Source: a virus (Duplodnaviria > Caudoviricetes). Taken from it: a stretch of 59,875 bases of DNA. Below are positions 11,388 to 30,869 of this stretch, one piece after another. The position numbers were made by a program, and so were the translations under genes. The stretch spans positions 1-59,875 of the IMG/VR virus record IMGVR_UViG_3300023179_008242. One strand, written 5' to 3'. Each line of letters begins with the position of its first letter. Within the stretch, counting starts at the first letter, position 1. The notes beneath the pieces were generated by a model, which saw only the letters and a list, made by a program, of their open reading frames with translations, searched no databases and was not told the origin of the DNA.

Positions 11388-12599
11388 CTATTCGACCAAG
11401 AATCTGAACTTGAAATTCTCGGCGACAGCCTCGATGGCCCTCATGTTTTCGTCGGAAATTTTTTCCGAAGACACGACGTCTATCGTATTTAGTCCGCAGA
11501 GCACGCGTTTGATCCCGAGAACCGAAAGGGATTCGATCTTTTTCCTGATGTCTAGGATGCACAGTCCCTTGAGCGAGAAGGGCCTGCTCTCCATGAACTC
11601 GAAGGGCCTGAAGAGGCGTCCGCATACGCATCTCGTGTAGGAATTCGATATCGAGCAGTAGTCTCCGTTCCAGTACCTCACGAACGGGCTGGCGAGGTTG
11701 AAGTAGTCGGTGCAGACCAGCCTGCCTTCGGATTCCTCCGCCCACGACAGGTTGTCCATCAGGTGGTAGGTGCCGTGGCGGCAAGTGAAGAACGAGGCGC
11801 CACCGTCCCAGCACCTCATGTGGTCGCAGACCCATTCCGCCCTGCCGTCCAGGAGGAACTCCCTGTCGGAGGGGAGCAGCCTCTCGTTCGTGTTGCTCAC
11901 GAGCGAACACAGCCTGTCCCTCCTCTTGCTCTTCCTGACGGCATCGCAGAGGGCGTTGATCGTCGACCCCGGGGCGAATATGACGTCGACCCTGTTTCTG
12001 ACCAGGTGTCCCATGATGTGACGCATGTAGGATTGTCTGTCCCTCTCCATGGCCTTGAAGTTGACGTAGTGGACGAAGGCCCTCCTCTTGAGGCCGTGGT
12101 GATCCATGAAGTTCTGCGAGTCCTCCCGCACGGTTACCGCCAATGATGAGTCGTACATCTTGCTGTTGAACATGTTGAGTATGTGGGGCGTCCGGGGCAT
12201 GCCGAACTCGTCCATCACGAGGTCGTAGTGGTTGTCTGCCTCTATCGGATAAAGAGATGGGTCCCACCTCAGGTAACCGAATGGATAACCCGTCGTGCTG
12301 CCGCTGGTGGACATCCTCGCCGACTCGTTGGACACCGATGGCGCGTGCCACCTCGAACCGTCCATGAGGCGTTCTCGGGTGAGAATCTCGTCCTCGATTT
12401 GGGCGTACACGGGGCTGTTGGAGGAGGCCCACGATTTGATGTTGGATCGAAGCAAGGAAACGACTTCGCGCACCAGTTCCTCTTCCTGGTACATGACCCA
12501 CCTGCACAGGGGGAAGTAGTCGTGGAGCATCTCCTTGCTCGGGAGGCACTCGCCCTTCCACTTTTCGACGAACTCCGTCAGCTCCTGTGTATTCCGCAT
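11388..12599 (-). CDS. Phenylacetate-CoA ligase/CapK-like adenylate-forming enzyme
   Basis: STSGSTTGYP P-loop; LVCTDYFN..PFVRYWNGD; C-x-CGR motif. Confidence 0.7.
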   Translation of the reverse strand: MRNTQELTEFVEKWKGECLPSKEMLHDYFPLCRWVMYQEEELVREVVSLLRSNIKSWASSNSPVYAQIEDEILTRERLMDGSRWHAPSVSNESARMSTSGSTTGYPFGYLRWDPSLYPIEADNHYDLVMDEFGMPRTPHILNMFNSKMYDSSLAVTVREDSQNFMDHHGLKRRAFVHYVNFKAMERDRQSYMRHIMGHLVRNRVDVIFAPGSTINALCDAVRKSKRRDRLCSLVSNTNERLLPSDREFLLDGRAEWVCDHMRCWDGGASFFTCRHGTYHLMDNLSWAEESEGRLVCTDYFNLASPFVRYWNGDYCSISNSYTRCVCGRLFRPFEFMESRPFSLKGLCILDIRKKIESLSVLGIKRVLCGLNTIDVVSSEKISDENMRAIEAVAENFKFRFLVE

Positions 12600-13255
12600 C
12601 CTTCCCTCAGGTAGAAGTTGAGGGTGACGCGGTTCGTGTGGGACCATCTGACGCCTTCCCACCTCGACACCAGGTCCCAGTCGTTCCCCTTGGGGACCCT
12701 GCGCCAACCTCCGTATCTATCTATGAGGATGCGCCTGTGCATTATCTCGCTCGTGTCGACGTATCCCTGCTTGGGGGCGTCGGGGTGGACGCGCTCCCCA
12801 ACAACCTTCATGTCGTGGCTCCACAGCCTCGTGCCCGTGTAGGCCATGTCCGAGTCCCTCTCCGATATCGCCTCGTAGAGGGCCTCCAGATGGTTGTCCT
12901 CGTACCAGTTGTCGTCGTCCAGGTAGCAGATGAGGTCGTTCCGCGAGTTCATTATGGCGAAGTTCCTCGGTCCCCATCCCGCGGCTCCGCAGTTGACCGG
13001 AAGCGAATGGAAGATGAACCTCGGGTCTGATATGGACCTGCAGAAACCTACGGTCTCCTTGCATATTTCGCACTCCATGCACGACCTGACGCCCTCGGCG
13101 TGCCTGCAGCCGTCCTTGACGATCATGCACTCGAAGTTCTCGTAGGTCTGGGCAGCCACGGATGTCACGGCCCTGTCGACCCACTCCAGCGACGAGTGGT
13201 ACGTGGGCATCACGACCAGAATCCTCTCCTTCCTTGCGGACTCCCCCAGTCTCAT
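12578..13255 (-). CDS. Glycosyltransferase family 2
   Basis: VVMPTY, SVAAQTYENFE, IVKDG, PRN.AI, YLDDDN and DWDL motifs. Confidence 0.9.
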   Translation of the reverse strand: MRLGESARKERILVVMPTYHSSLEWVDRAVTSVAAQTYENFECMIVKDGCRHAEGVRSCMECEICKETVGFCRSISDPRFIFHSLPVNCGAAGWGPRNFAIMNSRNDLICYLDDDNWYEDNHLEALYEAISERDSDMAYTGTRLWSHDMKVVGERVHPDAPKQGYVDTSEIMHRRILIDRYGGWRRVPKGNDWDLVSRWEGVRWSHTNRVTLNFYLREGCGIHRS

Positions 13256-13412
13256 AACGCCTCCTGCGCTTCTTGTGCGTCACTTCCGTGACGATGTATT
13301 TACGATCCGCGAGCCTCCATGATTGAAGAATTGGGAAAAAAATGAGGCCGATAGTTGCGACGGAGGGCATAGATACAAGTTGGTTTACGGAACCGTTAAA
13401 CGGGAGGGATTC

Positions 13413-14237
13413 ATGTTCGTAAGGTTTTTCCTCATCCTGCTGGCCCTTTGCTCGGCCTGCCCCGGGGGCACGATTGACCCCGTGGTGTCGGACGAAAAAT
13501 ATGTGTCGTACGGCGGCCTCCACGAGTGCGTGGTTCCCATATACGGGAACTGCGAGTGCGGAATGGAAGGCGGCAAGCCCCACAAGTTCGCCGCCAGCGC
13601 GGTGGTGGTCGGGAGGAAGTGGGTCGTGACCGCCGCCCACGTCGTGGCGAAGAGCTCAGGCGTTAAGGTCAGGGTGAGGGGCAAGGAACACGCCATGAGG
13701 CGAGTGATAGTCAACTCCGGGTTCAAGCAGGAGACGATGGGAAGGTACGACATCGCGATGTGCGAGTCCGAGGAAGATATGCACCTGGACTTCTACCCGG
13801 CCCTGTACGAGGGCGACGGGGAGAGCGGCAAGGTGGCGAGCATCTGCGGCTACGGCATAACCGGAACGTTCTCGACCGGGGCCGTGAGGGGGGACGGCAA
13901 GAAGCGGGCCGGGTCGAACACCATCGATAGGGCAGAGAACCACGTCCTCTTCTGCTCCGTGGTCGGAGGCAAGAAGACCGAGATGGAGTTCCTGATAGCT
14001 CCGGGCGACAGCGGTGGAGGCATGTTCATCGACCAGAAGCTCGCCGGCATCAACTCGTTCGTTTCGGCCAGCGACGGCAAGTCCAACTCGGACTACGGCG
14101 ATGAGTGCGCCTTCACGAGGGTCAGCCTGTTCGCGCCATGGATGAGGGCGTGCATGAACGGCGAGGAGCGCACGTCCCTAATCGACGACGGAGTCGATGT
14201 AGTCCTCAACCCTGAACGAGGGGCTCCATCCGAATGA
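13413..14237 (+). CDS. Trypsin-like (S1) serine protease with signal or lipoprotein-like leader
   Basis: TAAHV, YDIA and GDSGG catalytic-triad motifs; hydrophobic N-terminus MFVRFFLILLALCSAC; GGAGG RBS. Confidence 0.85.
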   Translation: MFVRFFLILLALCSACPGGTIDPVVSDEKYVSYGGLHECVVPIYGNCECGMEGGKPHKFAASAVVVGRKWVVTAAHVVAKSSGVKVRVRGKEHAMRRVIVNSGFKQETMGRYDIAMCESEEDMHLDFYPALYEGDGESGKVASICGYGITGTFSTGAVRGDGKKRAGSNTIDRAENHVLFCSVVGGKKTEMEFLIAPGDSGGGMFIDQKLAGINSFVSASDGKSNSDYGDECAFTRVSLFAPWMRACMNGEERTSLIDDGVDVVLNPERGAPSE

Positions 14238-15080
14238 CTTGAGAGCCTTCAGGTTGTCGGCGAGCGTCTCTCTAGCCTCGCCTTTTCGAGGCGGAAGGTA
14301 TGCCGTCCTGTCGGACATCCTGTTCGCAACCTCCAAAACGGACAAGTTCCTGCCCGACCCTATGTTGAAGACCGAACCGAAGCATTCATCGTCAATGTCG
14401 GACTCCGCCGCCAGTATGTTGGCTCGTGCGACGTCGTAGACGTGCGTGAAGTCCCTGCGCTGGAGCCCGTCGCCCACCACGGTGAGTGGCTGTCCGGCCT
14501 CGAGTTGCCTGCGGAATATGCCAATCACGGACGCATACTGTCCCTTCTGGGGCTCCCTGGGCCCGTAGACATTGAAGTACCTGAGCGTCAGGGTGCGCAG
14601 CCCGAAGGTCTTCCAGTACATCTCGCAGGCGATCTCCCCGGCCACCTTCGAGGCGGAGTAGGGGTTGAGGGGGTCGGGGCGCTGGTGCTCCCTGTATGGC
14701 ACAGGGTTGCCTCCGTAGGCCGAGCTCGTGGACGAATACACGAACCTCTTGGTTCCGTTGATCCTTGCGGACTCCAAGGCCACGGCCGTGCCGAGGGAGT
14801 TGGTGCGGAACGCCCTTACGGGATCCTCCATCGACAGGCCTATTCTAGAGGCCGCCGCGAGATGGAACACGAAATCGACGCCCGCGGAGAGCCTCTTCAT
14901 TGAATCTAGGTCGCACACGTCGACTTTGTGGTTTTCCGCTCCGCCGTTCCAGTGGTACCTGCCGTTGGACTCCGACGACTCGTTGTCCACGCACACGACC
15001 TCGTGGCCGACCCCGAGCAGGGCGTCGACGAGGTTCGACCCCACGAATCCTGCTCCCCCTGTTACTAGACTCCTGGGCAC
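14178..15080 (-). CDS. NAD-dependent epimerase/dehydratase (GalE-like extended SDR)
   Basis: VTGGAGFVGS, FHLAA, YSASK (YxxxK), RYFNVYGP, RDFTHV; GTG start with AGGAG RBS. Confidence 0.92.
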   Translation of the reverse strand: MPRSLVTGGAGFVGSNLVDALLGVGHEVVCVDNESSESNGRYHWNGGAENHKVDVCDLDSMKRLSAGVDFVFHLAAASRIGLSMEDPVRAFRTNSLGTAVALESARINGTKRFVYSSTSSAYGGNPVPYREHQRPDPLNPYSASKVAGEIACEMYWKTFGLRTLTLRYFNVYGPREPQKGQYASVIGIFRRQLEAGQPLTVVGDGLQRRDFTHVYDVARANILAAESDIDDECFGSVFNIGSGRNLSVLEVANRMSDRTAYLPPRKGEARETLADNLKALKSFGWSPSFRVEDYIDSVVD

Positions 15081-15772
15081 GCGTGGGTCTCCTGACGGAA
15101 TTCGTGCGGGAAGGATTCTCGGAAGAACCTTTCTATATCCGGCGTGGCGGCTGCCCTGTAGTACATTCTGTCGACTCCCAGATCGGACGGGTCGCGCACG
15201 AACTCCCGCACCCAGGGGGAAAGGGTCGCGTAGAAGCCGGAAAGCCTTCCGCTCCTGATCCATCGTACGACTTCGTCCTTGCGCGCTAGGAAGGACGATT
15301 GGTCGGTGAGTCCCGCCTCGCTCATCAATTCCATGGATGCCGAAATTTCCGCCCGGGCCTTCCTGTCGCTCGGGCGTATGGACATGTCCGAGGGGGACCG
15401 CGGACGAGCCATGATCTTGTCGCGCCTGCTCTTCCAGAGTTTCCACCTGCGCCAAGCCTTCTCCCCCACGAGGCAGTGGGGCTCTATGAGGGCGTGGACG
15501 TTGCCGTCGTTGATCGACTTGAGCATCTGTATCTGCGCCTGCACGTACATCGGGATTTCCTTGTCCGCGATTATCCCGGCCATCTCCTTGGCCAGTTTGT
15601 AGCAGTACTTGAAAAGGAGGCACCTTCTCGGGTCGGCCCCCGTCTTGAGCCTCGCGTAGGGCTCGTTCGGAATCTCCCTACGGCATTCGTCCTGCCAAAC
15701 AAGTGCTATTTTGTAGGCCTTCGCCTCGATTGGATCCATCCTGTAGCCTATGATTGGCTCGAGTTCTCTCAT
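15065..15772 (-). CDS. Hypothetical protein
   Basis: ORF starting MRELEPIIGY; no recognisable motif. Confidence 0.65.
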   Translation of the reverse strand: MRELEPIIGYRMDPIEAKAYKIALVWQDECRREIPNEPYARLKTGADPRRCLLFKYCYKLAKEMAGIIADKEIPMYVQAQIQMLKSINDGNVHALIEPHCLVGEKAWRRWKLWKSRRDKIMARPRSPSDMSIRPSDRKARAEISASMELMSEAGLTDQSSFLARKDEVVRWIRSGRLSGFYATLSPWVREFVRDPSDLGVDRMYYRAAATPDIERFFRESFPHEFRQETHACPGV

Positions 15773-15782
15773 GATTCTGCTA

Positions 15783-15811
15783 TTGCCCCTCCCGATAGAT
15801 CTAGTTATGTT
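15783..15811 (+). promoter_or_regulatory. Sigma70-like promoter for the candidate ncRNA/PolA unit
   Basis: TTGCCC-17 nt-TATGTT. Confidence 0.5.
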
Positions 15812-15817
15812 GTGTGG

Positions 15818-16215
15818 CGAACAAAACCTGCAATAACCTATAACGAACAGCAAAAACTTTCAACCCGAACTAGATTCGAATGGAGAACACTGTCGAGTCC
15901 GCGTTCGAGAGATCGCGGAGCCACGGGGATTATACTTCCCTGGTCCCTAAGCCTTTGCGTTGAAACTCGCATAGCCAATGACGGAGGAGGCTGAGTCGCC
16001 TGTAGAAAAACCTTTTGGCGCGGAGGAATCCGTGCTTTTCCGTGTAACCCGACGCTAGTCGATGCGTCGTGGGCCTGGGTCACGGTCCGAAATGGGTACG
16101 AATCAAAAGGTTGTAATAATACAGGCAGAGGGGTTCGGGCAATCGTCGTGTTAGCGGAACTCGGTGTACAAACGAAGGGAGAGGCACAAGGCCATATAAC
16201 TTGTGTCTCTTTTAT
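15818..16215 (+). ncRNA. Candidate large structured ncRNA (~400 nt), family unknown
   Basis: Nested long-range helices 15864-70/16133-39, 15998-16004/16120-26 and 16009-17/16104-12; local hairpins with GAGA and GAAA loops; possible pseudoknot; closing 14-bp hairpin 16177-16213; wobble pairs are G-U on the + strand. Confidence 0.6.
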
Positions 16216-16292
16216 AGGGGTACCCGGAGGGAAGGCCCATTCTCTAGACTGAAACATAGGCACATCTTCTTATTTTATGAAAGGACGATTAA

Positions 16293-16508
16293 TTGAGTAG
16301 CAAGAAAAAAACAAGAAGGCACATCAGGAGGATGGCAGAGAGGAAGGGCATCGGCTATAGGGAGGCAATATGCCGCTTCTACGACTCCGACTTGGAGTCC
16401 ATCAACAAGAGCCTTGTCTATTCGCTTCACAAGAACACAAGAGCCGGACGGATTTTAATATCGCCACTCATCGGGTATGATCGCGGCAACAATGTCAGAG
16501 ATGTCTGA
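16293..16508 (+). CDS. Small basic hypothetical protein
   Basis: TTG start after AAGGA; MSSKKKTRRHIRRM; overlaps the start of the PolA gene. Confidence 0.45.
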   Translation: MSSKKKTRRHIRRMAERKGIGYREAICRFYDSDLESINKSLVYSLHKNTRAGRILISPLIGYDRGNNVRDV

Positions 16509-17784
16509 AGTCATGCCCCGGTTCAGGGGACATGACATTTATTTTTACATGCACGGATCCGGCTCTTCGCTCGGCGACGAGCTGCGGTTCTACTACGGAG
16601 GCGGTAGGGCCGTAGTTCCGTGCTCGGACTCGGTGTCGATTAGCGTCCTCGCGTCCTCGATCCAGCATTTCGTGGACGCCGACCGCCTTCTAATCGCGTG
16701 GTCTGCGAAGGACATCTTCTCGTTCGTGAAGTCGCGCACGGAGATGTCCATGGAGGTCGGGAGCGTGCTCTACGACCTCTCGGTCATCTCCTCCTACCTT
16801 TCGGTTGAGTGCGAGGTTCCGACCTCGTTCTCCTCGGCCGTGAGGCTCTTGAAGCGGCTTCTGGGGCACCCGGGCTGGCCTGCCTTCAAGCCTTTCTACT
16901 TCGAGGTCTACATGCCCCTCGTTACCTCCGTGCTCCCCGAAATGGAGACCTGCTGCCTTGTGGACAACTCCAAGCGCATGTGCGTCTACCCTTCCTACGT
17001 CGTCGAGGGTCAGGCCAACGGGCGCCTGAAGGCTGTCGTGCCGTCGGAGGCCCACTACAACCCTCACTCGCTCGGGAGGGAGCAGAGGGCCAGTCTGAGG
17101 CCGGCGGGCTACGACGAGGTGTTCGTCTACTTCGACTACAAGAACATGGAGGTGAATGTCCTCCAGTGGCTTTCGGGCGACCCGAACCTCGGGGCGATAC
17201 TGGCGTCCGGGGAAGACCCGTACAGGTCGATATGGTCGCGTGTGATACGCGGAGAGGCAACCGAGTCCCAGAGGCGCATCTGCAAGGACATCTTCCTGCC
17301 CGTGGTTTTTGGCCAGGGTTCGCGCTCGCTGGCGGAGCGGGCCGGCATCAAGGAAGAAATTGCTTCCAGAATCATAGATACGCTGGTTGATGCCTTTCCT
17401 GTCGCCTTTGACTGGGTAACCTCCCAGTCGCCCGACGGCGACAAAATGGCCGTGGACTTCTTCGGGAGGCGGCGCCGCTTCGAGGGCCGAGAGCTCTACA
17501 AGACGCGCAACTTCTCCGTCCAGTCCCCTGCCAGCATGATATGCCTTCGGAAGCTCGTACGACTCCACCGCTCCTTGTCGGGGCTGGCGCGTACATGCTT
17601 CCATGTTCACGACGGATACTGCGTTGTATGCGACAAGAACAAGGTCGACGAGGTTTTCGAGGTCGGCACCTCGGTGCTCGAGGAGGAGGACGCTATGTTC
17701 CCCGGACTCAAGCTGAAGACCTCGTGCGTCCACGGCCCCTGCCTAGAAGAAACCAAACCCACCAGAAAAGGAGCATTAGCATGA
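16477..17784 (+). CDS. Short family-A DNA polymerase-like protein lacking the thumb subdomain
   Basis: GQANGRL (TGRL-like), motif A FDYKNMEV, motif B RRICKDIFLPVVFGQG, NFSVQSPAS, motif C HVHDG. Confidence 0.8.
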   Translation: MIAATMSEMSEVMPRFRGHDIYFYMHGSGSSLGDELRFYYGGGRAVVPCSDSVSISVLASSIQHFVDADRLLIAWSAKDIFSFVKSRTEMSMEVGSVLYDLSVISSYLSVECEVPTSFSSAVRLLKRLLGHPGWPAFKPFYFEVYMPLVTSVLPEMETCCLVDNSKRMCVYPSYVVEGQANGRLKAVVPSEAHYNPHSLGREQRASLRPAGYDEVFVYFDYKNMEVNVLQWLSGDPNLGAILASGEDPYRSIWSRVIRGEATESQRRICKDIFLPVVFGQGSRSLAERAGIKEEIASRIIDTLVDAFPVAFDWVTSQSPDGDKMAVDFFGRRRRFEGRELYKTRNFSVQSPASMICLRKLVRLHRSLSGLARTCFHVHDGYCVVCDKNKVDEVFEVGTSVLEEEDAMFPGLKLKTSCVHGPCLEETKPTRKGALA

Positions 17785-18341
17785 AACACATCCACGACTC
17801 ATTCCCGGTCACCGAGGAGGAGTACGCCATCCTCGACGACAAGTTCGGCGAGCTCTGCGAGTACCAGGCCTGGCAGCTCATCAAGAAGAACACGAGGAAC
17901 AACCACACGGACAGCCAGGAGGACATAGCCCAGGACATGAGGATCGCGCTGCTGCGAGCCGCGTCGTACTACAAGCGCCAGTGCTACATCGAGGACTGCC
18001 TGGATCTTTGCAAGAAGCAAGCCAAGGACGAGGTCATCAAGTCGGTCGTCCGCCAGCTCGCCGGCCTGTGGAAGAACAAGACCCGCCACGGGGCCAACAA
18101 GCAGAAGTTCGGCCCGCACCAGGAGAAGATGCTCGACAAGCTCGTGAGGAGCCTCGTGCCGCAGAAGCAGAGGCCGAACCGTCGAGCCCCGCTTCGCATG
18201 GACGCCAAGTTCATCACTTACTGCAAGGCGATCACGTGGAACGCCCAGAAGTCGCTTGGCAAGAAGATCACGCGGGAGAAGGGCATCAGGACGGGCATGG
18301 TGTCGCTTTCGGAGTACGACTACCTGGGCGGCAAGGACTGA
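17781..18341 (+). CDS. Putative sigma70 region-2-like factor (gp55-style)
   Basis: EDIAQDMRIALLRAASYY resembles region 2.2; KFITYCKAITWN resembles region 2.3/2.4; no region 4; ATGA coupling with PolA. Confidence 0.5.
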   Translation: MKHIHDSFPVTEEEYAILDDKFGELCEYQAWQLIKKNTRNNHTDSQEDIAQDMRIALLRAASYYKRQCYIEDCLDLCKKQAKDEVIKSVVRQLAGLWKNKTRHGANKQKFGPHQEKMLDKLVRSLVPQKQRPNRRAPLRMDAKFITYCKAITWNAQKSLGKKITREKGIRTGMVSLSEYDYLGGKD

Positions 18342-18344
18342 CCT

Positions 18345-18623
18345 TCAGTCCCAGTGCTCCGTTCCCGACTCGTCGAACCAGTGGAGAACCCATCCCATGG
18401 TCGAGTAATACATCCTGTCGACGCCTATCTTCCCCTCATGCACCTTTCGGTGGCAGTTGGCACAGCACGTTACCACGTTGAGCGGGACGTACTCGCCTCC
18501 CTTCTCCCCCGGCAGAATCCTGTGCACGTCGAGGACGCAGTAGTTGTCCTCGCCGCAGAACTTGCACTTCCCGTCCGACTTCTTCTTGGCGGCCTTGTCG
18601 ACCAGTTTCTTCTTCCTTGGCAC
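18345..18623 (-). CDS. HNH endonuclease
   Basis: CKFCG...LDVHRI.PG..GG.Y...NVVTCCANCHRKVH. Confidence 0.85.
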   Translation of the reverse strand: MPRKKKLVDKAAKKKSDGKCKFCGEDNYCVLDVHRILPGEKGGEYVPLNVVTCCANCHRKVHEGKIGVDRMYYSTMGWVLHWFDESGTEHWD

Positions 18624-18643
18624 GCATTACTCTAGCGAACGGA

Positions 18644-18672
18644 TTGACTAAAAATATGCGGATGATTAGATT
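18644..18672 (+). promoter_or_regulatory. Sigma70-like promoter upstream of the replicative helicase
   Basis: TTGACT-17 nt-TAGATT. Confidence 0.6.
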
Positions 18673-18734
18673 TACGGGCCTGGAGCGTCGACAAGGCGAC
18701 AGGATCCGCCGCTAGATACTGAACGGGAAGCTAA

Positions 18735-20339
18735 TTGAACAGCATGCAGGAAGAAGACGGCGGACTCACGGATGCCGAGATCGCGGAGCTCGAGGGCCTC
18801 ACGAACCCTGACTCCAAGAAGCAGGAGCGGTACCGATGGGACGAGGACTTCCAGCGCACCGTGGTCGGGCTCCTGCTCAACGACCGCTGGTTTGTCAACC
18901 AGTGCCGCGACCTCGTCCTCCCCTCCTACTTCGCTGACGAGCGCCACCAGACGCTCTGTCGCATCCTCTTCGACTACATGGACCAGTACAAGTCCATACC
19001 GCCCAAGACCGTAGTGATTCAGGAGGTCAAGAACCAGACCTCGAACAGGGATCCGGCGATGCAGGCGGAGTACCTCTCCGAGGCCGAGATTGTCTACAAG
19101 AAGTTCGTGCCGGGCCTCGAGACGAGGGAGTACCTGCTCGGCAAGATCGTCAACTTCGCGAAGCTGATGAGCCTCAAGGCCGCCTTCGACAAGTCGATCG
19201 TCATGGTGAAGCGGGACCCGGAGGGCGAGAAGACCTGGAACTCCATACGCGAGGAGCTCCAGAAGGCCCTCATCGTCGAGAGGAACTTCGAGCCCGGCCT
19301 CAACTACTTCGAGACCTTCGAGGAACGCTACGCTAGGATGGCGAACGAGGAGGCCGCCCGCGAGAGGTTCACCAGCGGTTTCGAGATGATCGACGACGCC
19401 CTCCTCGGGGGCGGGTGCCACCGCGGCGAGATATACTCGTGGATAGGGCTCAGCGGCAGCGGCAAGAGCCTCGCCCTCGTCGGCGCTGCCCTCAAGAACG
19501 TCACGCAGCTGGGGAAGAAGGTGCTGTACATCTCCCTTGAGATGGGCGAGGACGCCATAGCGGAGAGGTTCGACGCCCAGATGGCCGACGTCGACATCAA
19601 CAAGCTCCAGGACATGAAGGATCGGGTCAAGTCCGCCTTCGAGGAATTCTCGAGGGACAAGCAGGACAAAAGGATGCTCGTCATCAAGCAGTTCCCCGCT
19701 GGCTCGATGAGCGTGGCCTCGCTCCGCGCCTACATGCAGCAGCTACAGATGGTGGGCTTCGTCCCCGACCTGCTCGTTATAGACTACATCGGCGAGATGA
19801 AGGACTTCCCCGGCATGCCCACCTGGGAGTCGCGCTACAGGATAGTCAGGGACCTCCGCGGCCTCGCCACCGAGGATAATATCTGCATATTCACAGCCAT
19901 GCAGCCGAACAAGGACGCCCGCTCGGCCCAGAATAAGAACTCCACACTCGGCGACGGCGTGATCGACGACACGAACCTTGCCGACTCCTATGGACAGATC
20001 AGACCCCTCGACGGCTGCTGGAGCATCAACCAGATGCAGGCCGAGAAGGAGGCGGGCATCGCGAGGATATTCGTCATCAAGCACCGCCACGGCAAGAGCA
20101 GGTTCACGTGCTGGGCCCAGTTCGACAGGAAGACGCTGCAGATAAGGCAGATCAGCGAGAACAGGTACAACGAAATCTGGAAGGAATACTCTTTCAATAA
20201 GACCGAGCGCGCCTCTGACATGGACAACCAAGTGAAGAGCATAGTCGGAAAGGGTAAGATCAAGGGCTTCTCGTCGGACTCGGGGTACGACGACCCCGAC
20301 CAGCCCGACGAGCGTCCTCCACTGGAAGAAAGGAACTGA
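18735..20339 (+). CDS. Replicative DnaB/gp41-like helicase
   Basis: Walker A GLSGSGKS, YISLEM, LLVIDY, TAMQ, ADS, KHRHG. Confidence 0.9.
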   Translation: MNSMQEEDGGLTDAEIAELEGLTNPDSKKQERYRWDEDFQRTVVGLLLNDRWFVNQCRDLVLPSYFADERHQTLCRILFDYMDQYKSIPPKTVVIQEVKNQTSNRDPAMQAEYLSEAEIVYKKFVPGLETREYLLGKIVNFAKLMSLKAAFDKSIVMVKRDPEGEKTWNSIREELQKALIVERNFEPGLNYFETFEERYARMANEEAARERFTSGFEMIDDALLGGGCHRGEIYSWIGLSGSGKSLALVGAALKNVTQLGKKVLYISLEMGEDAIAERFDAQMADVDINKLQDMKDRVKSAFEEFSRDKQDKRMLVIKQFPAGSMSVASLRAYMQQLQMVGFVPDLLVIDYIGEMKDFPGMPTWESRYRIVRDLRGLATEDNICIFTAMQPNKDARSAQNKNSTLGDGVIDDTNLADSYGQIRPLDGCWSINQMQAEKEAGIARIFVIKHRHGKSRFTCWAQFDRKTLQIRQISENRYNEIWKEYSFNKTERASDMDNQVKSIVGKGKIKGFSSDSGYDDPDQPDERPPLEERN

Positions 20340-20340
20340 A

Positions 20341-20862
20341 ATGGAAGTATCCGACCTCATACCCAAGGCGGACATTGACCGTCTGTCGCCTCACGCCCAG
20401 ACCGTCATCAAGCTCGGGGGGCAGGAGGTTGTGCTGGACAACTCGAGGCTGTCGTTCAACGAGACCAGCCTCAACGCCTTCATGGAAAACCTGGCCCTGT
20501 GGTACGACTACTTCAGCCAGAAGCTCGCCGAGGCGGAGGCCATAATGGCCTACAAGGAGTACGAGTACGACGTGCTCTTCTCCGCCTCCTACGAAAGGAG
20601 CAAGGAGAGCGGGTGCACGGACAAGCTGGCGGAGGCCAACGCCAAGAAGGACCCCAACGTGTGCGATGCCAAGAAGGAGATCATCGGCGCCAAGCACAAG
20701 GTCACGCTCCTCAAGCAACACCTCAAGGCCTGGGACAAGGCGCACGAGAACGCCATGAGCCGCGGCCACATGGTACGCAAGGAGATGGACAAGCTAAACA
20801 CGGACATCGTGTTCAGGAACAAGGACGACCGCGTGGGTGAGATCGTGGGCCGCGGCCAATGA
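20341..20862 (+). CDS. UvsY-like recombination mediator (coiled coil)
   Basis: Helical protein of matching size with a TDK.AEA...DP pattern; located in the helicase/SSB/RecA cluster. Confidence 0.5.
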   Translation: MEVSDLIPKADIDRLSPHAQTVIKLGGQEVVLDNSRLSFNETSLNAFMENLALWYDYFSQKLAEAEAIMAYKEYEYDVLFSASYERSKESGCTDKLAEANAKKDPNVCDAKKEIIGAKHKVTLLKQHLKAWDKAHENAMSRGHMVRKEMDKLNTDIVFRNKDDRVGEIVGRGQ

Positions 20863-21446
20863 ACTACCTGGTCGACCCGGACAACATCACCGACTTCGGT
20901 CTGTCCGACGACGGCCTAGAACTCGTCCTCCTCTTCTGGGTTTGCGCCGCCGGCAAGAAGGCCTCGGTGGCCGCGGCGAACCTGTGCCGACTTCTTGAGG
21001 ATGGCAGGGCTCGGTTCGGAGAGGATTCGCCCTTTTCCATAGTGCTAAGCTTCGGCCACGGCCTCGCCGAGGCCCTGCGATCGCACGGGATAGGTTGTTA
21101 CAACAACAAGTCCCGCTCCATGCTGGAGTTGGCCTCCTCCGGTGTTGATTTGCGCTCCTGCACCGTCGCCGAACTGGAATCGGTGAGGGGAATCGGCCCG
21201 AAGACCGCGAGGTGTTTCCTCATCCACAGCCGAAGGGGCGTTCGGCACGCCGGCTTGGACACCCATGTGCTGAAGTACATGAGGGCCAAAGGAATCGATG
21301 TTCCCAAGTCGACGCCCTCCGGCAGGAGGTACCTAGAACTTGAGGAGATTTTCCTTGGGATGGCGGACTGTTCGGGCAAGTCCGTAGCCGAGTTCGACCT
21401 TGAAATATGGAAGTCCTACAGCTCGGGCGTCGTTCGGAATAGATAG
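20859..21446 (+). CDS. HhH-GPD DNA glycosylase, Ogg (8-oxoguanine) type
   Basis: HhH VRGIGPKTARCFL, LDTHVLKYM, YLELE, FDLEIW. Confidence 0.8.
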   Translation: MNYLVDPDNITDFGLSDDGLELVLLFWVCAAGKKASVAAANLCRLLEDGRARFGEDSPFSIVLSFGHGLAEALRSHGIGCYNNKSRSMLELASSGVDLRSCTVAELESVRGIGPKTARCFLIHSRRGVRHAGLDTHVLKYMRAKGIDVPKSTPSGRRYLELEEIFLGMADCSGKSVAEFDLEIWKSYSSGVVRNR

Positions 21447-21480
21447 ACTAGAAAAAGCCCCTTCGTCCATAAATACGTCT

Positions 21481-21855
21481 ATGGATATCAAAATAAGCGA
21501 ACTTCCCGCCGGCGTGGCGACGCCCGATGCCGTGGTGCCCGCGACGAACGCGGAGGACACCCTCACGGAGAAGATCACCTTGGGGGACATAGCGGGTTTG
21601 GTCGGAGCCGAGTCGCAAGGCATTCAGGGAACGCAAGGAACCACGGGCATTCAAGGCCCTATCGGTTTGCAAGGGACAACGGGCGCTCAAGGCACAATTG
21701 GAATTCAAGGCTCCACAGTTCTAGACGGCTCGTCATTTAGCAATCCGTCTGGTATCAACGGAGCCACGGCGATCACCAACATCGTCGCCATCTCGCAGGC
21801 GAACTACGACCAGTTGTCTACGAAAAATTCAACCACGCTTCACGTGATCACCTGA
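21481..21855 (+). CDS. Short collagen-like (G-x-y) fibre or structural protein
   Basis: KISELP start; QGIQGTQGTTGIQG repeats; ISQANYDQL..K..TTLHVI C-terminus; ATAAATA 5 nt upstream. Confidence 0.7.
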   Translation: MDIKISELPAGVATPDAVVPATNAEDTLTEKITLGDIAGLVGAESQGIQGTQGTTGIQGPIGLQGTTGAQGTIGIQGSTVLDGSSFSNPSGINGATAITNIVAISQANYDQLSTKNSTTLHVIT

Positions 21856-21857
21856 TT

Positions 21858-22520
21858 ATGACACAAAAACTCGGAACGGCGTTTGCTGATCTTGCCGACG
21901 GCGGCCCTTTCGCCGCCGCGGCCGCGGAAGTTGCAAGGAGGATCGGAGCCCAAGGCATATCTTCTCGTGCGCTTCTGGGGGGCATGCGTCTCATAGACGA
22001 GTCCTCGAGGCTCACGGGACAGTACCAGGACCCCAACTACCTCCCCATGTACTACCACATGGGGAGGGTCTTCGATCCCAAGAGGGTGCTCTGCGTGGGC
22101 CTGAACCTCGGCTTGCATGTAAGCTGCCTTCTTCGGGGATGCCGAAGCCCCGAGTCGGCCGTGTGCGTCGAGTCCCCGTCTGAATCTTTCTATTCGCCTC
22201 GGCTGGCCGTTTCGAACATCAAGTCCGCCGCCGGCAGGAGGTTTCCCGTTCGGGTTCACGTCGGCGACCTGCACGACCCGTCTCTTGCGAATTCGTGCCG
22301 GGGCACCGACATGGCCGCCGTCACCTACGAGATGGGGAGCGACGAGCTCATGCATTGCATGGACTTCTGCTGGGCCTCCCTGTCGAACGGCGGCGTGATG
22401 TGCGTCGACCGCCTGTCGCACAAGGACTCAAGGGCCGTCTTCGATGACTTCTGTCGAGCCAAGGGCGCCAGCCCGTTCTTTCTCGCCACCCGCGACGGCT
22501 CCGGGATCGTGGAGAGGTAG
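21858..22520 (+). CDS. Class I SAM methyltransferase-like protein (degenerate)
   Basis: PKRVLCVGLNLG (motif I-like); LSNGGVMCVD. Confidence 0.45.
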   Translation: MTQKLGTAFADLADGGPFAAAAAEVARRIGAQGISSRALLGGMRLIDESSRLTGQYQDPNYLPMYYHMGRVFDPKRVLCVGLNLGLHVSCLLRGCRSPESAVCVESPSESFYSPRLAVSNIKSAAGRRFPVRVHVGDLHDPSLANSCRGTDMAAVTYEMGSDELMHCMDFCWASLSNGGVMCVDRLSHKDSRAVFDDFCRAKGASPFFLATRDGSGIVER

Positions 22521-22532
22521 CTAGTTTAGTCC

Positions 22533-23258
22533 ATGGGATACGAGATCATCTACAGGTACAAGGAGGCGACCGAGGTCCCGGGCGTCTACTCCGAAGAGGT
22601 CAAGGAGCGGAGCGCCAAGATCGGCAAGGTGACGGAGGACGTCGGGCTCGACGCGCTGGCGGCGAAGATCATGACCCAGCTCGCCCGCAGGAACGTGCTG
22701 ATCGTCGACGTCGAGATATACGAGTACGCGAGGAAGCGGGTGTCGTACAGGGAGACCGCCTCGGGCATCGTCATCAAGAATAAGAAGTTCTCGTTCGACT
22801 CCGGGGCGGTGGTGGAGACGGGCGAGTTCGAGGAGCCCGCCGCTGAAGCCTCGCCCCTGGAGGACTTCAAGCCCCTCCCCTCCCCGTCCAAGGAGGCGGC
22901 GGACAGGTCGTGCCCCGTCGCCGCGAGGAACCTGGCCAGGAGGCCGCTTCGCCACGAGCGATACGACCCGGATCCGATGTCCGCGATCAAGGCCAAGCAG
23001 AAGGGACTTCGGTTCACGCCTGGCAAGCAGTACCCCATATGGTCGGAGAAGTCCATGGGTACTATCCTTCTCTATTCCACAACCGACGACGCGGGCCGCG
23101 ACGTGGACGCAAGCGCAGAGTACTTCGTAGCCATAGGCTCCGGGCTAGTCCAGCAGGACGAAGGTCCGACCTACGTGGGGGCGGAGGACCGCAAGGAGGA
23201 GGTGAACCTGTGGGGGAACTACGAGCACGTGGACATGCCTGACATAAGGAGAAAGTGA
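22533..23258 (+). CDS. Hypothetical protein
   Basis: Strong GC3 coding bias; in operon context. Confidence 0.75.
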   Translation: MGYEIIYRYKEATEVPGVYSEEVKERSAKIGKVTEDVGLDALAAKIMTQLARRNVLIVDVEIYEYARKRVSYRETASGIVIKNKKFSFDSGAVVETGEFEEPAAEASPLEDFKPLPSPSKEAADRSCPVAARNLARRPLRHERYDPDPMSAIKAKQKGLRFTPGKQYPIWSEKSMGTILLYSTTDDAGRDVDASAEYFVAIGSGLVQQDEGPTYVGAEDRKEEVNLWGNYEHVDMPDIRRK

Positions 23259-23683
23259 TGCCAACCAAGAAGCAGATGCAGAAGAAGAAGGCCAGGGAGC
23301 TCAAGGGCAAGGCCAGGGCGGCGGCGAGGAGGCACAAGCTGCACGCGGCCTCCAAGGAGGAGCGACGCAGGGCGAGCCTCGACAGGAAGTTCAGGGACAA
23401 GATCGCCCCCATAGTCAACGACCCGGAGAAGAAGAAGGCCGCGGAGGAGGCCGATAAGAAGAGGGTCTTGGAACGGCTCCAAAGGAATGCCGAGATACTC
23501 AAGGCGCTAGAGGACGAGTACGAGCGAGACGCGGCCCAGAAAAAGGCGATCAACGACAGTCTAGAGGCCGAAGGGCACCACACGCTAAAGGAGAAGTTCG
23601 GGGCTCTGGAGGCGAAGGCCAGGGCTGCCAGTGCAGATTCGGGTCTAGAGGGACAATTGGACACCACCCAGCCTTCCGAATGA
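23255..23683 (+). CDS. Basic coiled-coil hypothetical protein
   Basis: K/R/E-rich; start overlaps the upstream stop. Confidence 0.7.
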   Translation: MMPTKKQMQKKKARELKGKARAAARRHKLHAASKEERRRASLDRKFRDKIAPIVNDPEKKKAAEEADKKRVLERLQRNAEILKALEDEYERDAAQKKAINDSLEAEGHHTLKEKFGALEAKARAASADSGLEGQLDTTQPSE

Positions 23684-23709
23684 ATTCTGAAAAAATCCGC
23701 TAAAGTCTA

Positions 23710-23738
23710 TTGACCGTTTCTCCGATCTTATGTATAAC
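23710..23738 (+). promoter_or_regulatory. Sigma70-like promoter upstream of SSB
   Basis: TTGACC-17 nt-TATAAC. Confidence 0.55.
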
Positions 23739-23796
23739 ATGTTGACGCGGCACGGAAGTGTCGCCGAAACCTTAACCTTTACAACGGAGAAATGAC

Positions 23797-24732
23797 ATGG
23801 GACTTGATCTTGGATCACTTCAGAACGACTATAAGACGCTCAAGGCGGCTGAGGGCGGCGGTGGGTCTTTCCTTGAGAACTTTGTGAGGATGCCGGAGGG
23901 CAAGGGAAGCGTTGTGATGCGCCTCCTCCCGCCAGCCCCCAAGGGCGCCTTCGGCAGGGATGATAACCCCTTCTACCTCGTCACCGCCCTCCACAGGGTG
24001 AACGGCAAGAGCCTGCACGACATACGGGACTATGTTAATGGCAAGTGGGTCGGACGCAATCCGATCTGCGAGTACATGCGGCACCTCTGGAAGGAAAGCG
24101 AGCAGGCTGCGCCCGCGGAGGCAGAGCAGAAGAGGAACCTCTATCGGCAGATCAAGCCGATCGAGAGGTACTACTACAACGTCATCGTCCGCGAGGAGCG
24201 GTCGGAGGACGGCACGGTCAAGAAGAACGTCGGCCCGAAGATTCTCTCCGTGGGCAAGACCGTCCACGAGATCATCTTGAGGGGCATCCTCGGCGACAAG
24301 GAGATGAACCAGGACAGGCTCGGCGACGTGACCGACTTCAAGGCCGGCTACGACTTCAAGCTCGTCAAGACCATCCGCAAGTCGGGCGACCAGAGTTTCC
24401 CGAACTACGAGAGCTCGCACTTCCTTGATCAGAGCCCCGCCGGCGACCCCGACGAGTGCAAGCGGTGGATGGAGAACCTCCACGACCTCAAGGCCCTCAG
24501 GATTCTGAAGACCTACGAGGAGTTGGAGCACGAGCTCCTCGTCCATCTCGGCCTCAAGCAGGAGACCGAGGGAGGCTTCGATCCCACGAAGTACGTCGGC
24601 CGCTCCGCTGCCGCCGAAACGAAGGCTCCCGTCGCGCCGGCCCCGGTCGCCGCCGCGGTCGCCCACGAGTCGGACTCTGACGATTCCGACGCCGACGAGG
24701 ACTTCCTCGAGGAGCTCAGGAAGCTCGGCTGA
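23797..24732 (+). CDS. T4 gp32-like single-stranded DNA-binding protein
   Basis: MRLLP, NPICE, RYYYNV, GPKILSVGK, GYDFKL, FPNYESS; acidic tail DSDDSDADEDFLEEL. Confidence 0.85.
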   Translation: MGLDLGSLQNDYKTLKAAEGGGGSFLENFVRMPEGKGSVVMRLLPPAPKGAFGRDDNPFYLVTALHRVNGKSLHDIRDYVNGKWVGRNPICEYMRHLWKESEQAAPAEAEQKRNLYRQIKPIERYYYNVIVREERSEDGTVKKNVGPKILSVGKTVHEIILRGILGDKEMNQDRLGDVTDFKAGYDFKLVKTIRKSGDQSFPNYESSHFLDQSPAGDPDECKRWMENLHDLKALRILKTYEELEHELLVHLGLKQETEGGFDPTKYVGRSAAAETKAPVAPAPVAAAVAHESDSDDSDADEDFLEELRKLG

Positions 24733-24749
24733 TTCTTTTCTGTCGGAAC

Positions 24750-24785
24750 GGCGTCCCCTGTGGCAATCGGGCCACAGGGGACGCC
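24750..24785 (+). terminator. Perfect 15-bp hairpin between SSB and RecA
   Basis: ggcgtcccctgtggc / gccacaggggacgcc with a 6-nt loop; weak U-tract. Confidence 0.6.
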
Positions 24786-24820
24786 CTATTCCCGCCATTC
24801 GAACACTGAAGGAGACCATC

Positions 24821-26011
24821 ATGGCCAAGGCCAAGAAGAACGAGGATGCGATTCTGGACGAGATACTCTCGTCCACTGGCGGCGAGACCCTGCGCAACGC
24901 GGGCATAGTTCCTTACTATGTCAACACCGGCAACCTCGCCATCAACTACGCCTGCAGCGGAAAGTTCGTCAAGGGAGGCTTTCCGGGCGGACGCATCATC
25001 GAGGCCTTCGGCCCGGAGGCCTCGGGCAAGTCGTTCCTCGGCTACTGTTTCCTGGGAGCAATCCAGAATCAGGGCGGCATAGCGGTTCTCCTTGATTGCG
25101 AGAGGTCCAGCGGCAGCGAGTTCGCGGAGAGGTGTGGGCATGTGAACCCGGACAAGCTCATCGTGTACAGCCCGGTCACCCTCCAGCAGGTCGAGAAGCA
25201 GATAATCTCTGTGGTGAGGGCGATAAGGTCGAAGTTCCCCGACAAGCCGATCGGCATAGTCTGGGACAGCATCGGCGTGAACCCCACGGAGCGCGAGTTC
25301 AGCGAGGTCGAGCTCCCCGACAACCCCACCAAGGCCCAGATCGACGCGGTCGGCCAGGAGCGCCCCGGCGAGCGGGCCAAGTTCGCGAACAAGATTCTGA
25401 GGAGTCTGAACCCGTTCCTCAACGACAACGACGCCACCCTGTACGTCATCAACCAGGTGCGCAAGAAGATCGGCGTTATCTACGGAAACGACGAGACGAC
25501 CAGCGGAGGAGGCGAGGCCCTCAAGTTCTACGCCTCCCTCAGGTTCAGGACCGGCGCCCCCAAGTCGTTCCAGGACAAGGACACGAAGCTGTCCCTCGGG
25601 GTCAACATGACGATTGCCAACAAGAAGAATCGTCACTTCACCCCGGGCATAAAGGTCGAGAACGTCCCTCTCTTCTTCGATTCCGGCATCAACCCTCTCG
25701 GCGGCCTGCTTGACGCCCTCCTTATGGCGAAGCGGGTGGAGCCCGCGAAGGGGGCTGGCAAGTATGCGGTGCTCGCTCCTTGGAACGGCGGCGACGATGG
25801 GGCAACATTCCAACAGGCGAAGTCCGCTCCGTTCGACTCTTCCATACTCATGAAGTATCCGGCGCTCGTCGACGCAGAGAGCCCGGAGGAGGTGTCCGAA
25901 TATCTCAAGGAGTGGTCGGCGGCGATAGCGCTCACCAACAGCGACAGCGTGGAGCAGATCGACACCCACCAGGATGTCGGGCACCTTATCGGCTCGAAGG
26001 ACGAGGACTGA
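24821..26011 (+). CDS. recA: RecA/UvsX-like recombinase
   Basis: GRIIEAFGPEASGKS, VWDS, INQVR, TTSGGGEALKFYASLR, KNR. Confidence 0.92.
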   Translation: MAKAKKNEDAILDEILSSTGGETLRNAGIVPYYVNTGNLAINYACSGKFVKGGFPGGRIIEAFGPEASGKSFLGYCFLGAIQNQGGIAVLLDCERSSGSEFAERCGHVNPDKLIVYSPVTLQQVEKQIISVVRAIRSKFPDKPIGIVWDSIGVNPTEREFSEVELPDNPTKAQIDAVGQERPGERAKFANKILRSLNPFLNDNDATLYVINQVRKKIGVIYGNDETTSGGGEALKFYASLRFRTGAPKSFQDKDTKLSLGVNMTIANKKNRHFTPGIKVENVPLFFDSGINPLGGLLDALLMAKRVEPAKGAGKYAVLAPWNGGDDGATFQQAKSAPFDSSILMKYPALVDAESPEEVSEYLKEWSAAIALTNSDSVEQIDTHQDVGHLIGSKDED

Positions 26012-26020
26012 GGCTCCGCC

Positions 26021-26275
26021 CTAGCGCTTGCGTTGTTTTGGCTTGGCCTGGCCTTCGGCCTTGAATTTTACATTCGCCGTCCTGTGCGACTTGTCGCACA
26101 CCGCTGACACCAGGCTGGATATGCCTGCCAGCTGCGACCTTTTGAGTTCGGCCCTCACGACTTGGGTCTTCGCCCCGAAGGCGCGGCAGTACTCTCCGAG
26201 CATTTTCCTGCAGGCAATCGGCAGGAAGAATCGCTTCCTGTCGGAGGTCTCTACCATGAGGCACTTCACAGACAT
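26021..26275 (-). CDS. Small hypothetical protein
   Basis: MSVKCLMVETSDRKRFF after GAGG-rich RBS. Confidence 0.55.
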   Translation of the reverse strand: MSVKCLMVETSDRKRFFLPIACRKMLGEYCRAFGAKTQVVRAELKRSQLAGISSLVSAVCDKSHRTANVKFKAEGQAKPKQRKR

Positions 26276-26438
26276 TTTGCTCCCCTCCTCTCTGCCATTC
26301 CGTTCGCCCAACTAAATTAGACCAACCGCGGGCGTATTGCCAAACCGCCAAAAAACAGTCCATTAAACGGGCGTTTTTGGACAAACCGGTCGCTTTTATT
26401 CAGTCTCTCCGGGATACATATTGCAGAGGGCACAGGCC

Positions 26439-26888
26439 ATGTCGAACTTCGACGCCAGACTAGACAACTTGAGGAATCTTTCCCGCGACCTGGTGCCGTA
26501 CAACTTCCCGCTTGGCCCTGTCGAACTGGAATACTATCTTTCGCCCCTGAAAAGGTCCGAGGCTGAGGCGGACGGATACTCCCTCGTCTTTCACTTCAAC
26601 AGGGCGGCATACAACGACCACTATCTCGAGTCGTTCCAGGTCTACAACAAATACGCCCCGTTCCTCCCTTTCTCTCTGGTTACGAAGCTGGCCAAGAAGG
26701 CGTTGGGGCCGCACCAGCTCGCCCTCGTCGAGTTCTACCAAGAAGACAAGAAGGTCTACTGCTGGAGCGTCTGCCTCGACTCTAGGGGCCGGCCGATAGC
26801 TTCGCCCATGAAGGAGAGGACTGAAACGCGGGAGTTCGAGGGCCTCAGATATGCCTACATGAGGCCCGAACAATTGAATCTGTATTGA
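26439..26888 (+). CDS. Hypothetical protein
   Basis: ORF with coding bias; ATACATA upstream. Confidence 0.65.
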   Translation: MSNFDARLDNLRNLSRDLVPYNFPLGPVELEYYLSPLKRSEAEADGYSLVFHFNRAAYNDHYLESFQVYNKYAPFLPFSLVTKLAKKALGPHQLALVEFYQEDKKVYCWSVCLDSRGRPIASPMKERTETREFEGLRYAYMRPEQLNLY

Positions 26889-26921
26889 GCACCGACCCCT
26901 TAATTCAGGAGGTTTTCAACC

Positions 26922-27227
26922 ATGAATTCGGCCGCCAAGAACAAGATACAGAGACTGCTCGTCGAGTACCTGCTCAAGGAGGGCACGCTGGAGCTCGCCC
27001 TCCCGAGCGGGATGGTTCTCGAGGTCGGCGTCACGCAGGAGAACAGGCACGGCGACCAGGAGATAACCCCGGATTACTGCTGGGTGGTGGCATCCCAGAG
27101 AAACCGTTCGGTCTCCATAGACAGGTACAACCTAGGGCTAAGGTACCGCGGCGACAGGGAGATGGTGTGCCAGCAGTCCATCCTTGACGACGACGGAACG
27201 AGCGTCAACATACTTGATGTTCTTTAG
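26922..27227 (+). CDS. Hypothetical protein
   Basis: AGGAGG RBS; 101 aa. Confidence 0.7.
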   Translation: MNSAAKNKIQRLLVEYLLKEGTLELALPSGMVLEVGVTQENRHGDQEITPDYCWVVASQRNRSVSIDRYNLGLRYRGDREMVCQQSILDDDGTSVNILDVL

Positions 27228-27236
27228 AAATACGTA

Positions 27237-27265
27237 TTGACCGCTGCATCAATCTGCATTATTCT
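27237..27265 (+). promoter_or_regulatory. Sigma70-like promoter
   Basis: TTGACC-17 nt-TATTCT. Confidence 0.55.
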
Positions 27266-27332
27266 AAATAAGTGTCGCGATCGACGCACATGTGTGCCGT
27301 CGTGGTTCGGCTCATCGCAGTGGGGATCAAAC

Positions 27333-27608: not shown

Positions 27609-27628
27609 GGACGCGGGAACCACCCCTT

Positions 27629-30798: not shown

Positions 30799-30823
30799 GT
30801 GTCACCTGTGTGTTATTTAGGCT

Positions 30824-30851: not shown

Positions 30852-30869
30852 GCCAATAAGGAGGACGAC

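Follow-up and report, generated by a model that had tools for sequence, protein, structure and literature searches.

A large structured RNA family outside Rfam at the head of a phage DNA polymerase operon

The ColE1 plasmid makes a folded pre-primer, RNA II, from a promoter a few hundred nucleotides upstream of the origin, and an antisense RNA, RNA I, is directed against its 5' part. RNA II forms a persistent RNA-DNA hybrid, which is cut by RNase H and extended by a family A polymerase. Folded RNAs also serve as leaders that are bound by a product of their own operon, and lambda nutL-N, the T4 gene 43 operator, and the ribosomal-protein and rne leaders are generally known examples. Large structured RNAs described earlier have been ribozymes, ribonucleoprotein scaffolds, or unusual assemblies, and large RNAs in which many helices covary are rarely seen. 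The DNAVirus_N candidates, structured RNAs proposed from IMG/VR data, are 29 to 151 nt long in the accessible part of their description (PMC10690425). Here, we describe a ~380- to 430-nt RNA fold that, together with a conserved sigma70-like promoter ahead of it, occupies positions 15783 to 16245 on the plus strand of a phage DNA fragment, next to a gene for a family A DNA polymerase (PolA).

The DNA analyzed, referred to as the window, is an entire IMG/VR virus record of 59,875 bp with a CheckV completeness of 12%, and it is therefore a piece of a very large phage. Its DNA is present in lake and freshwater metagenome sequencing runs. A gap of 520 bp separates a leftward gene block on the left from a rightward block on the right and marks the switch point between leftward and rightward genes. 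The constant left neighbor of the RNA is a divergent gene (positions 15068 to 15772, minus strand) for a 235-aa protein of unassigned family that matched no profile in Pfam, PHROGs, NCBIfam, or PDB; its Atlas features resemble those of ParB/RepB helix-turn-helix proteins, a likeness that we treat as a lead only. The first gene after the RNA is a small basic open reading frame (ORF) of 71 aa with an arginine-rich N-terminal part (16293 to 16508, plus strand). This ORF is conserved at the protein level (11 aligned sequences); profile searches of Pfam, PHROGs, NCBIfam, and PDB gave no credible family for its product, and tblastn against phages returned only matches with E values of at least 5. 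The PolA gene follows (16477 to 17784, plus strand) and encodes 435 aa with a polymerase domain only (Pfam DNA_pol_A, E value of 5.6e-24), the Pfam match spanning no more than profile positions 101 to 376. The initial annotation had called this polymerase thumb-less, a description made doubtful by an Atlas structural match in which residues 1 to 428 align with the polymerase domain of Pol I (TM, 0.86). The last catalytic motif of PolA reads H-D-G-Y and was invariant across six divergent relatives (H378, D379, G380, and Y381 in alignment A4); in canonical Pol I enzymes, an acidic residue follows the aspartate of this motif. Where the small ORF overlaps the start of PolA, two adjacent hairpins (16488 to 16530, plus strand) gave a subthreshold match to RAGATH-25, (20.2 bits; gathering score, 49; E value, 0.034).

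Downstream of PolA lies a gene for a 186-aa protein (17781 to 18341, plus strand), for which the same four profile searches (Pfam, PHROGs, NCBIfam, and PDB) found no credible family. By eye, this protein is far more alike between the window and the syntenic locus L031 (4174 to 4728) than is PolA, which is 54% identical. An HNH endonuclease gene (18345 to 18623, minus strand) is located between the 186-aa gene and a helicase gene and is equally placed in L031 (5154 to 5489, minus strand). A promoter-like site, TTGACT-17-TAGATT, is present ahead of the helicase gene (18644 to 18672, plus strand). The genes to the right of the HNH endonuclease gene encode a DnaB-like helicase, an Ogg/HhH protein, a gp32-like single-stranded DNA-binding protein, a RecA-like protein, and a DEAD-box helicase, and the gap thus heads a replication block. 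The gap itself is crossed by a 141-aa ORF on the minus strand (15838 to 16263). We ruled this ORF out as a protein-coding gene, as it matched no Pfam or PHROG family and is not kept in L031, where no ORF of at least 60 aa covers the RNA; the gap therefore holds no credible ORF, as had been claimed initially.

To collect homologues of the RNA, the two flanking proteins, DNA motifs, and a covariance model were used in searches, and these yielded 12 distinct full-length copies, that of the window included (the others in L005, L009, L022, L025, L006, L002, L010, L031, L042, L043, and L045), as well as one partial copy (L024). The G+C content of the homologues ranges from ~0.30 to 0.60. The gene order was constant wherever the contig reached, with the 235-aa gene on the minus strand followed by the RNA, the small basic ORF, and PolA on the plus strand. 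In every locus found that extends far enough, the RNA was upstream of PolA and on the same strand, and this place and strand were retained down to PolA identities of 41 to 43%. Thus, the link to the polymerase that the initial annotation had proposed holds as synteny and not beyond it. Even where the flanking protein has only 47 to 51% identity, nhmmer detected the gap, with E values of 1e-20 to 1e-27. Comparison with a ~97%-identical strain showed 6 changes among 433 RNA positions (2 of them in the 276-nt body) and 14 among 315 positions of the coding DNA just downstream. Both observations point to selection on the RNA. It occurs as a single copy in the 59.9-kb window and in 154 kb of record G001. 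When the gap was compared by blastn with 50,697 phage records, nothing matched. The covariance model (R1) gave no hit in L004 and L011 to L014, regardless of the filter setting, and was likewise negative for 33 of 36 further PolA loci. Three motif matches in bacterial genomes and the viral matches L027 to L029 and L032 were dismissed as chance hits in G+C-rich coding DNA.

The plus strand of 15850 to 16215 folds at −135.7 kcal/mol (z = −3.67), with 0 of 100 shuffles folding as well, whereas the minus strand reached a z of −2.0 and was equaled by 5 of 100 shuffles. Single-sequence folds of nine homologues gave one common architecture. In a plain MAFFT alignment of the core of nine sequences, 89.6% of the cells in 57 pairs were paired and 21 pairs had changed on both sides; no shuffle of 500 reached the score, and slid controls were 30 to 47% paired. 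A second alignment (A5), which was fitted to the model, adds three AT-rich homologues (L042, L043, and L045) and covers a 201-position core in 12 sequences; here, 91.4% of the cells in 57 pairs were paired and 35 pairs had changed on both sides (0 of 500 shuffles; slid controls, 37 to 50% paired). Over the full length, eight sequences supported 98 pairs in 18 helices, of which 90.2% of the cells were paired and 36 pairs had changed on both sides (0 of 500 shuffles; slid controls, 37 to 51%). The 12 homologues fall into about five clades, and these pair counts are not numbers of independent events; the structures, moreover, were derived from the sequences on which they were evaluated. G-U pairs, which the initial annotation had taken as a sign of selection on RNA rather than DNA, account for 71 of 654 paired cells, and when the same pairs were read on the minus strand, the paired fraction fell from 91.4% to 82.7%, which places the RNA on the PolA strand. 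These results show a conserved RNA on the plus strand (15864 to 16240) with about 13 helices that belongs to a family outside Rfam.

The folded body of the RNA (15864 to 16139, plus strand) comprises helices P1 to P11, as defined by folding and covariation. P1 (15864 to 15870 with 16133 to 16139) lies directly 5' of P2 in the other clades and is positioned differently in the window and L005, which are also the only sequences with P1a (15875 to 15880 with 15892 to 15897). Hairpins P2 (15898 to 15919) and P3 (15921 to 15943) are followed by P4 (about 15945 to 15948 with 16130 to 16133), by P5 (15951 to 15955 with 15987 to 15992), which encloses hairpin P5a (15956 to 15971), and by P6 (15996 to 16004 with 16120 to 16129) and P7 (16009 to 16017 with 16104 to 16112). 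P8 (16019 to 16034) is a GNRA-type hairpin with a GGAA loop, which is GAAA or GAGA in relatives, and GAGA, GAAA, or GGAA loops are found in both P5a and P8. The remaining helices are P9 (16040 to 16050 with 16077 to 16085), P10 (16051 to 16068), and P11 (16086 to 16096). The positions of P1, P2, P3, and P7 are those of the initial annotation, and its helix at 15998 to 16004 with 16120 to 16126 and its hairpins at 15950 to 15992, 16048 to 16073, and 16177 to 16213 were likewise found where it had placed them. Two of its proposals had to be revised. A hairpin at 16018 to 16045 with a CCGUG loop is replaced by P8, as covariation pairs 16019 to 16024 with 16029 to 16034, so that 16030 to 16034 is the 3' strand of a helix. 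The pseudoknot drawn between 16030 to 16034 and 16081 to 16085 gives way to a nested helix, P9, in which 16081 to 16085 pairs with a second CCGUG at 16040 to 16044. P9 does not vary among the nine closer sequences, but a G-C pair is replaced by A-U in L042, L043, and L045, where the strands 16040 to 16044 and 16081 to 16085 become CCAUG and CAUGG. The core as a whole shows no variation among these nine and very little across all 12. A candidate pseudoknot between the 5' leader and the P5a loop (15858 to 15869 with 15954 to 15965) would be formed by complementary strands in the window, in the clade of L009, and in L042, whereas the strands are not complementary in L002, L031, and L045.

Behind the body, a variable linker (16140 to 16176), poorly conserved in alignments A1 and A2, leads to P12 (16177 to 16213), a long hairpin whose sequence varies while its pairing is kept (two-sided changes in 6 of its 9 pairs). 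P12 is terminator-like only in the window, L005, and L006, where a U run follows it; elsewhere, the U's lie within the stem or are absent. The terminator scan made no call on this hairpin, and we rejected P12 as a conserved intrinsic terminator. The element does not end at this 14-bp hairpin, as had been suggested, since most relatives lack the U tail and a conserved 3' motif, GGGTACCC..AGGGAAGGCCC, follows at 16218 to 16240 (plus strand) in all 12 homologues. Common to all clades is AGGGA, a spacer of 2 to 6 nt, and a C run, together a small GGG/CCC hairpin, and in the main clade a pyrimidine-rich tail comes after the C run. The motif occurs once in the window, against an expectation of 0 matches, and the lowest G+C content of the neighborhood lies directly behind it. 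The lengths of a G run in the core (16071 to 16073) and of the 3' C run (16236 to 16238) covary, a pattern that would fit a pairing of the two runs but is indistinguishable from the local GGG/CCC hairpin. In the AT-rich members, 12 to 45 nt separate the 3' motif from the start codon of the small ORF, with no U-tailed hairpin in between, and a terminator scan of 12000 to 31000 found no plus-strand terminator-like site between 16200 and 18400.

The sigma70-like promoter noticed in the initial annotation, TTGCCC-17-TATGTT, is present at 15783 to 15811 (plus strand), and a TTG(C/A)NN-16/17-TAnnnT box occurs at the equivalent place in 12/12 homologues; transcription would be expected to start near 15818. 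In the ~97%-identical strain, three clustered changes fall within the promoter spacer (window positions 15794 to 15797), and both hexamers are unchanged. The divergent 235-aa gene has a candidate promoter of its own, TTGAAA-17-TAGGTT (15835 to 15863, minus strand), and a TTGAAx/TTGTTC-17-TAnnnT box is found at the aligned place in eight of nine main-clade sequences, L005 being the exception, with the best such boxes of the three AT-rich sequences located elsewhere. Thus, the conserved and seemingly unpaired 5' leader (~15835 to 15863) is probably the promoter of the divergent gene, and the transcript of that gene is predicted to overlap the RNA by ~11 nt at their 5' ends. AACCU/AACUUUC repeats in this leader were dropped as RNA motifs or a template, as they form the −35/−10 pair of the divergent gene on the minus strand.

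A scan with the Rfam 15 models gave no match at gathering score in the window or in 140 kb of G001, nothing inside 15783 to 16260 at E values up to 10, and nothing within the RNA of eight related loci at E values up to 1. The families covered include group I and group II introns, RNase P, tmRNA, SRP, 6S, GOLLD, ROOL, HEARO, OLE, raiA, riboswitches, self-cleaving ribozymes, and RNAI. ARAGORN found neither a tRNA nor a tmRNA. A group I or group II intron is ruled out because the RNA lies between divergent genes, its left neighbor being on the minus strand. A search of the full-text literature found no description of the RNA. The DNAVirus_N candidates come from the same data source and rest on the same kind of evidence (intergenic covariation) in the part of PMC10690425 that is accessible, and they may include pieces of the present RNA, which differs in being ~400 nt long. 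A preprint on reverse-transcriptase arrays (10.64898/2026.09.22.753630) is, as far as its accessible part goes, unrelated. The proposal of a new large structured RNA on the plus strand is therefore borne out by the lack of an Rfam match together with the conservation and covariation among relatives.

We also examined the same position in sister clades. A PolA-relative profile identified 47 loci, of which 28 were mapped. The present RNA was found in three of these (L042, L043, and L045), whereas 13 had ~490 to 830 nt without an ORF of at least 90 aa ahead of PolA (L048, L049, L051, L052, L054, L056, L065, L069, L070, L073, L075, L077, and L079), five had no gap and a gene for ~425 aa abutting PolA (L066, L067, L068, L071, and L074), and seven were cut by a contig end or unclear (L046, L047, L055, L058, L076, L078, and L081). 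The gap sequences in front of PolA are conserved within clusters. Cluster B (L051, positions 1655 to 2100, with L052, L055, L056, and L076) has 55 predicted pairs, of which 21 had changed on both sides among five sequences, and its entry in L013 (3240 to 3830, minus strand) folds with a z of −4.0 and has no Rfam match. The cluster B RNA belongs to a clade further removed, where it is likewise flanked by the 235-aa gene and PolA but where the small basic ORF is missing. In cluster C (L069, positions 1773 to 2266, with L070, L075, L077, and L079), 15 of 45 predicted pairs had changed on both sides among five sequences, and the two members of cluster D (L065 and L073) are alignable over about 840 nt at 70% identity. 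Model R1 matched neither cluster B nor cluster C, and these share no common motif with the present RNA; they would be either separate families or relatives that have diverged past recognition. Two further structured RNA families at the equivalent position suggest a wider phenomenon that has not been described.

The ~425-aa gene (positions 659 to 1948 in L067, 1043 to 2323 in L071, and 984 to 2246 in L074; partial in L066 and L068) is similar to AEP primases, with E values for PF22548 of 2.3e-8, 5.7e-5, and 9.2e-5 and a match to phrog_3022, "DNA primase," at 1.7e-5. It was present in 4/4 records of its own type and absent from 10 records that bear the RNA or a gap, two of which are 63% and 69% complete; this alternation is drawn from neighborhoods and partial genomes. 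Other primases are encoded elsewhere in gap-bearing genomes (a DnaG-like primase and a Prim-Pol in G006 and a Prim-Pol in G013), so that the RNA is no simple replacement of a primase, and the idea of an outright replacement is weakened.

Our best explanation, which is tentative and to which we give somewhat less than an even chance, is that the RNA is a folded, protein-binding leader of the mRNA that carries the small ORF, PolA, and the 186-aa gene, with the arginine-rich small protein as its likeliest partner. Host RNA polymerase would start at the conserved sigma70-type promoter (15783 to 15811), and the folded RNA would form the first ~430 nt of a transcript continuing into the three genes. 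The fold would act on its own transcript by determining how the polymerase message is translated, stabilized, or processed, and the leader may later be released as a stable ribonucleoprotein. The best candidate for a binding partner would be the arginine-rich protein encoded right behind the RNA, with PolA as the other candidate. We infer the co-transcription of the RNA with PolA, and both ends of the RNA, from sequence. The RNA would be the 5' part of this transcript because the place and strand are constant, because only 12 to 45 nt, with no terminator, precede the start codon in the AT-rich members, and because the next plus-strand promoter-like site is that at 18644 to 18672. The promoter kept in 12/12 homologues, the position upstream of PolA on its strand, and the single copy would all count for co-transcription. 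As a partner, the small basic ORF is favored by its occurrence in 12/12 full-length RNA loci versus 0/13 gaps of other clusters.

Like lambda nutL-N, the T4 gene 43 operator, and the ribosomal-protein and rne leaders, the RNA lies directly behind an early promoter, its first gene encodes a small arginine-rich protein, and P5a and P8 have GNRA-type loops. However, it is 5 to 10 times larger than those leaders, and the small protein has no similarity to known families. Processive antitermination of the N/nut or put type is unlikely because there is no plus-strand terminator-like site between 16200 and 18400. Several observations count against a leader. To our knowledge, ~400 nt, 13 helices, and a near-invariant core go far beyond the needs of any known leader operator; the small protein would be an RNA-binding protein with no match to known RNA-binding families; and in the window, L005, and L006, the RNA could stop ahead of the ORF, at P12 and its short U run. 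Additionally, distant clades keep a large RNA without the small ORF, so that the conserved link is with PolA or the locus and not with the small protein.

The main rival, which we consider unlikely on balance but a serious contender, is a pre-primer or origin transcript like ColE1 RNA II or the origin transcripts of T7 and mitochondria. Host RNA polymerase would make the RNA, its 3' part would stay hybridized near the 3' motif and the AT-rich stretch, and the hybrid RNA would be cut and its 3'-OH extended by the adjacent family A polymerase. Pol I-type enzymes extend pre-primer RNAs of the ColE1 RNA II kind, and the resemblance to RNA II includes a host-type promoter, a conserved fold of several hundred nucleotides, occurrence as a single copy, and a link with a family A polymerase, which here consists of gene adjacency. 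The RNA is directly upstream of and co-oriented with PolA at the head of the replication genes, at the switch between leftward and rightward genes, and behind its conserved 3' motif, with a G run and a C run, the G+C content is the lowest in the neighborhood. The AEP primase-like gene that abuts PolA in five distinct loci without a gap (PF22548, E values of 2e-8 to 9e-5), found in all records of its own type and in none of the 10 RNA- or gap-bearing ones, also points in this direction, although the alternation is known from neighborhoods and partial genomes and gap-bearing genomes (G006 and G013) have other primases. However, the GC skew is flat with no turning point at the locus, no iterons or repeats were found, and a core that is invariant in nine sequences and nearly so in 12 is atypical of primer RNAs. 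The RNA also differs from RNA II in being a phage element rather than a plasmid one, in lacking any match by sequence or model, and in a transcript that probably continues into genes. For an antisense regulator like RNA I, the Rfam scan gave no RNAI match, and the only candidate overlap is the predicted ~11 nt shared with the divergent mRNA. The leader and the pre-primer are compatible, and one read-through transcript could serve both.

A broader proposal, which we regard as doubtful, is that the slot before the minimal PolA holds an interchangeable initiator, either one of at least three unrelated large folded RNA families or an AEP primase-like protein, the RNAs being structure-dependent primers or initiators. 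If true, this would be a case of RNA-for-protein replacement in the initiation of phage replication.

We judge it less probable still that the RNA is a stand-alone, trans-acting stable RNA, terminated or cut out, that serves as a scaffold, a decoy, or a catalyst, like the orphan phage RNAs. Its size, number of helices, GNRA-type loops, and near-invariant core do resemble those of large stand-alone RNAs, it has a strong host-type promoter of its own, and a 3' end could be provided by P12 with its U run in the window, L005, and L006 or, in the main clade, by the GC hairpin with a pyrimidine tail that follows the 3' motif. GOLLD, ROOL, OLE, raiA, and HEARO are likewise large, many-helix RNAs, and the present RNA also comes from phage DNA of lake metagenomes, but their Rfam models gave no match even at E values up to 10, and RNAs of the GOLLD/ROOL type are scattered or near tRNAs, whereas the present RNA is fixed beside one gene, PolA. 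Such strictness of place and strand down to 41 to 43% PolA identity would be unexpected for a free-standing gene, and the AT-rich members have no terminator. Finally, an element acting as DNA (an origin or initiation signal with hairpins formed in single-stranded DNA, or overlapping promoters with operators) is highly improbable, as 18 helices, some spanning 100 to 270 nt, keep their pairing through two-sided changes for which promoters and operators are insufficient and a conserved promoter is directed into the element, even though G-T wobble is possible in single-stranded DNA too, the 5' conserved block is best read as an opposite-strand promoter, and words resembling TCTAG are found both at the promoter and behind the 3' motif.

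Overall, the RNA is a real and previously uncatalogued large structured family that is tied to a phage polymerase operon. It is unusual in being locked to one context, the head of a phage replication operon beside a minimal PolA, and this gives a direct experimental handle. As a leader, it would be more elaborate than any other known at a polymerase gene. If it is a primer or an initiator, it would show how very large phages begin replication and would offer a natural example of one position occupied by either an RNA or a primase-like protein.
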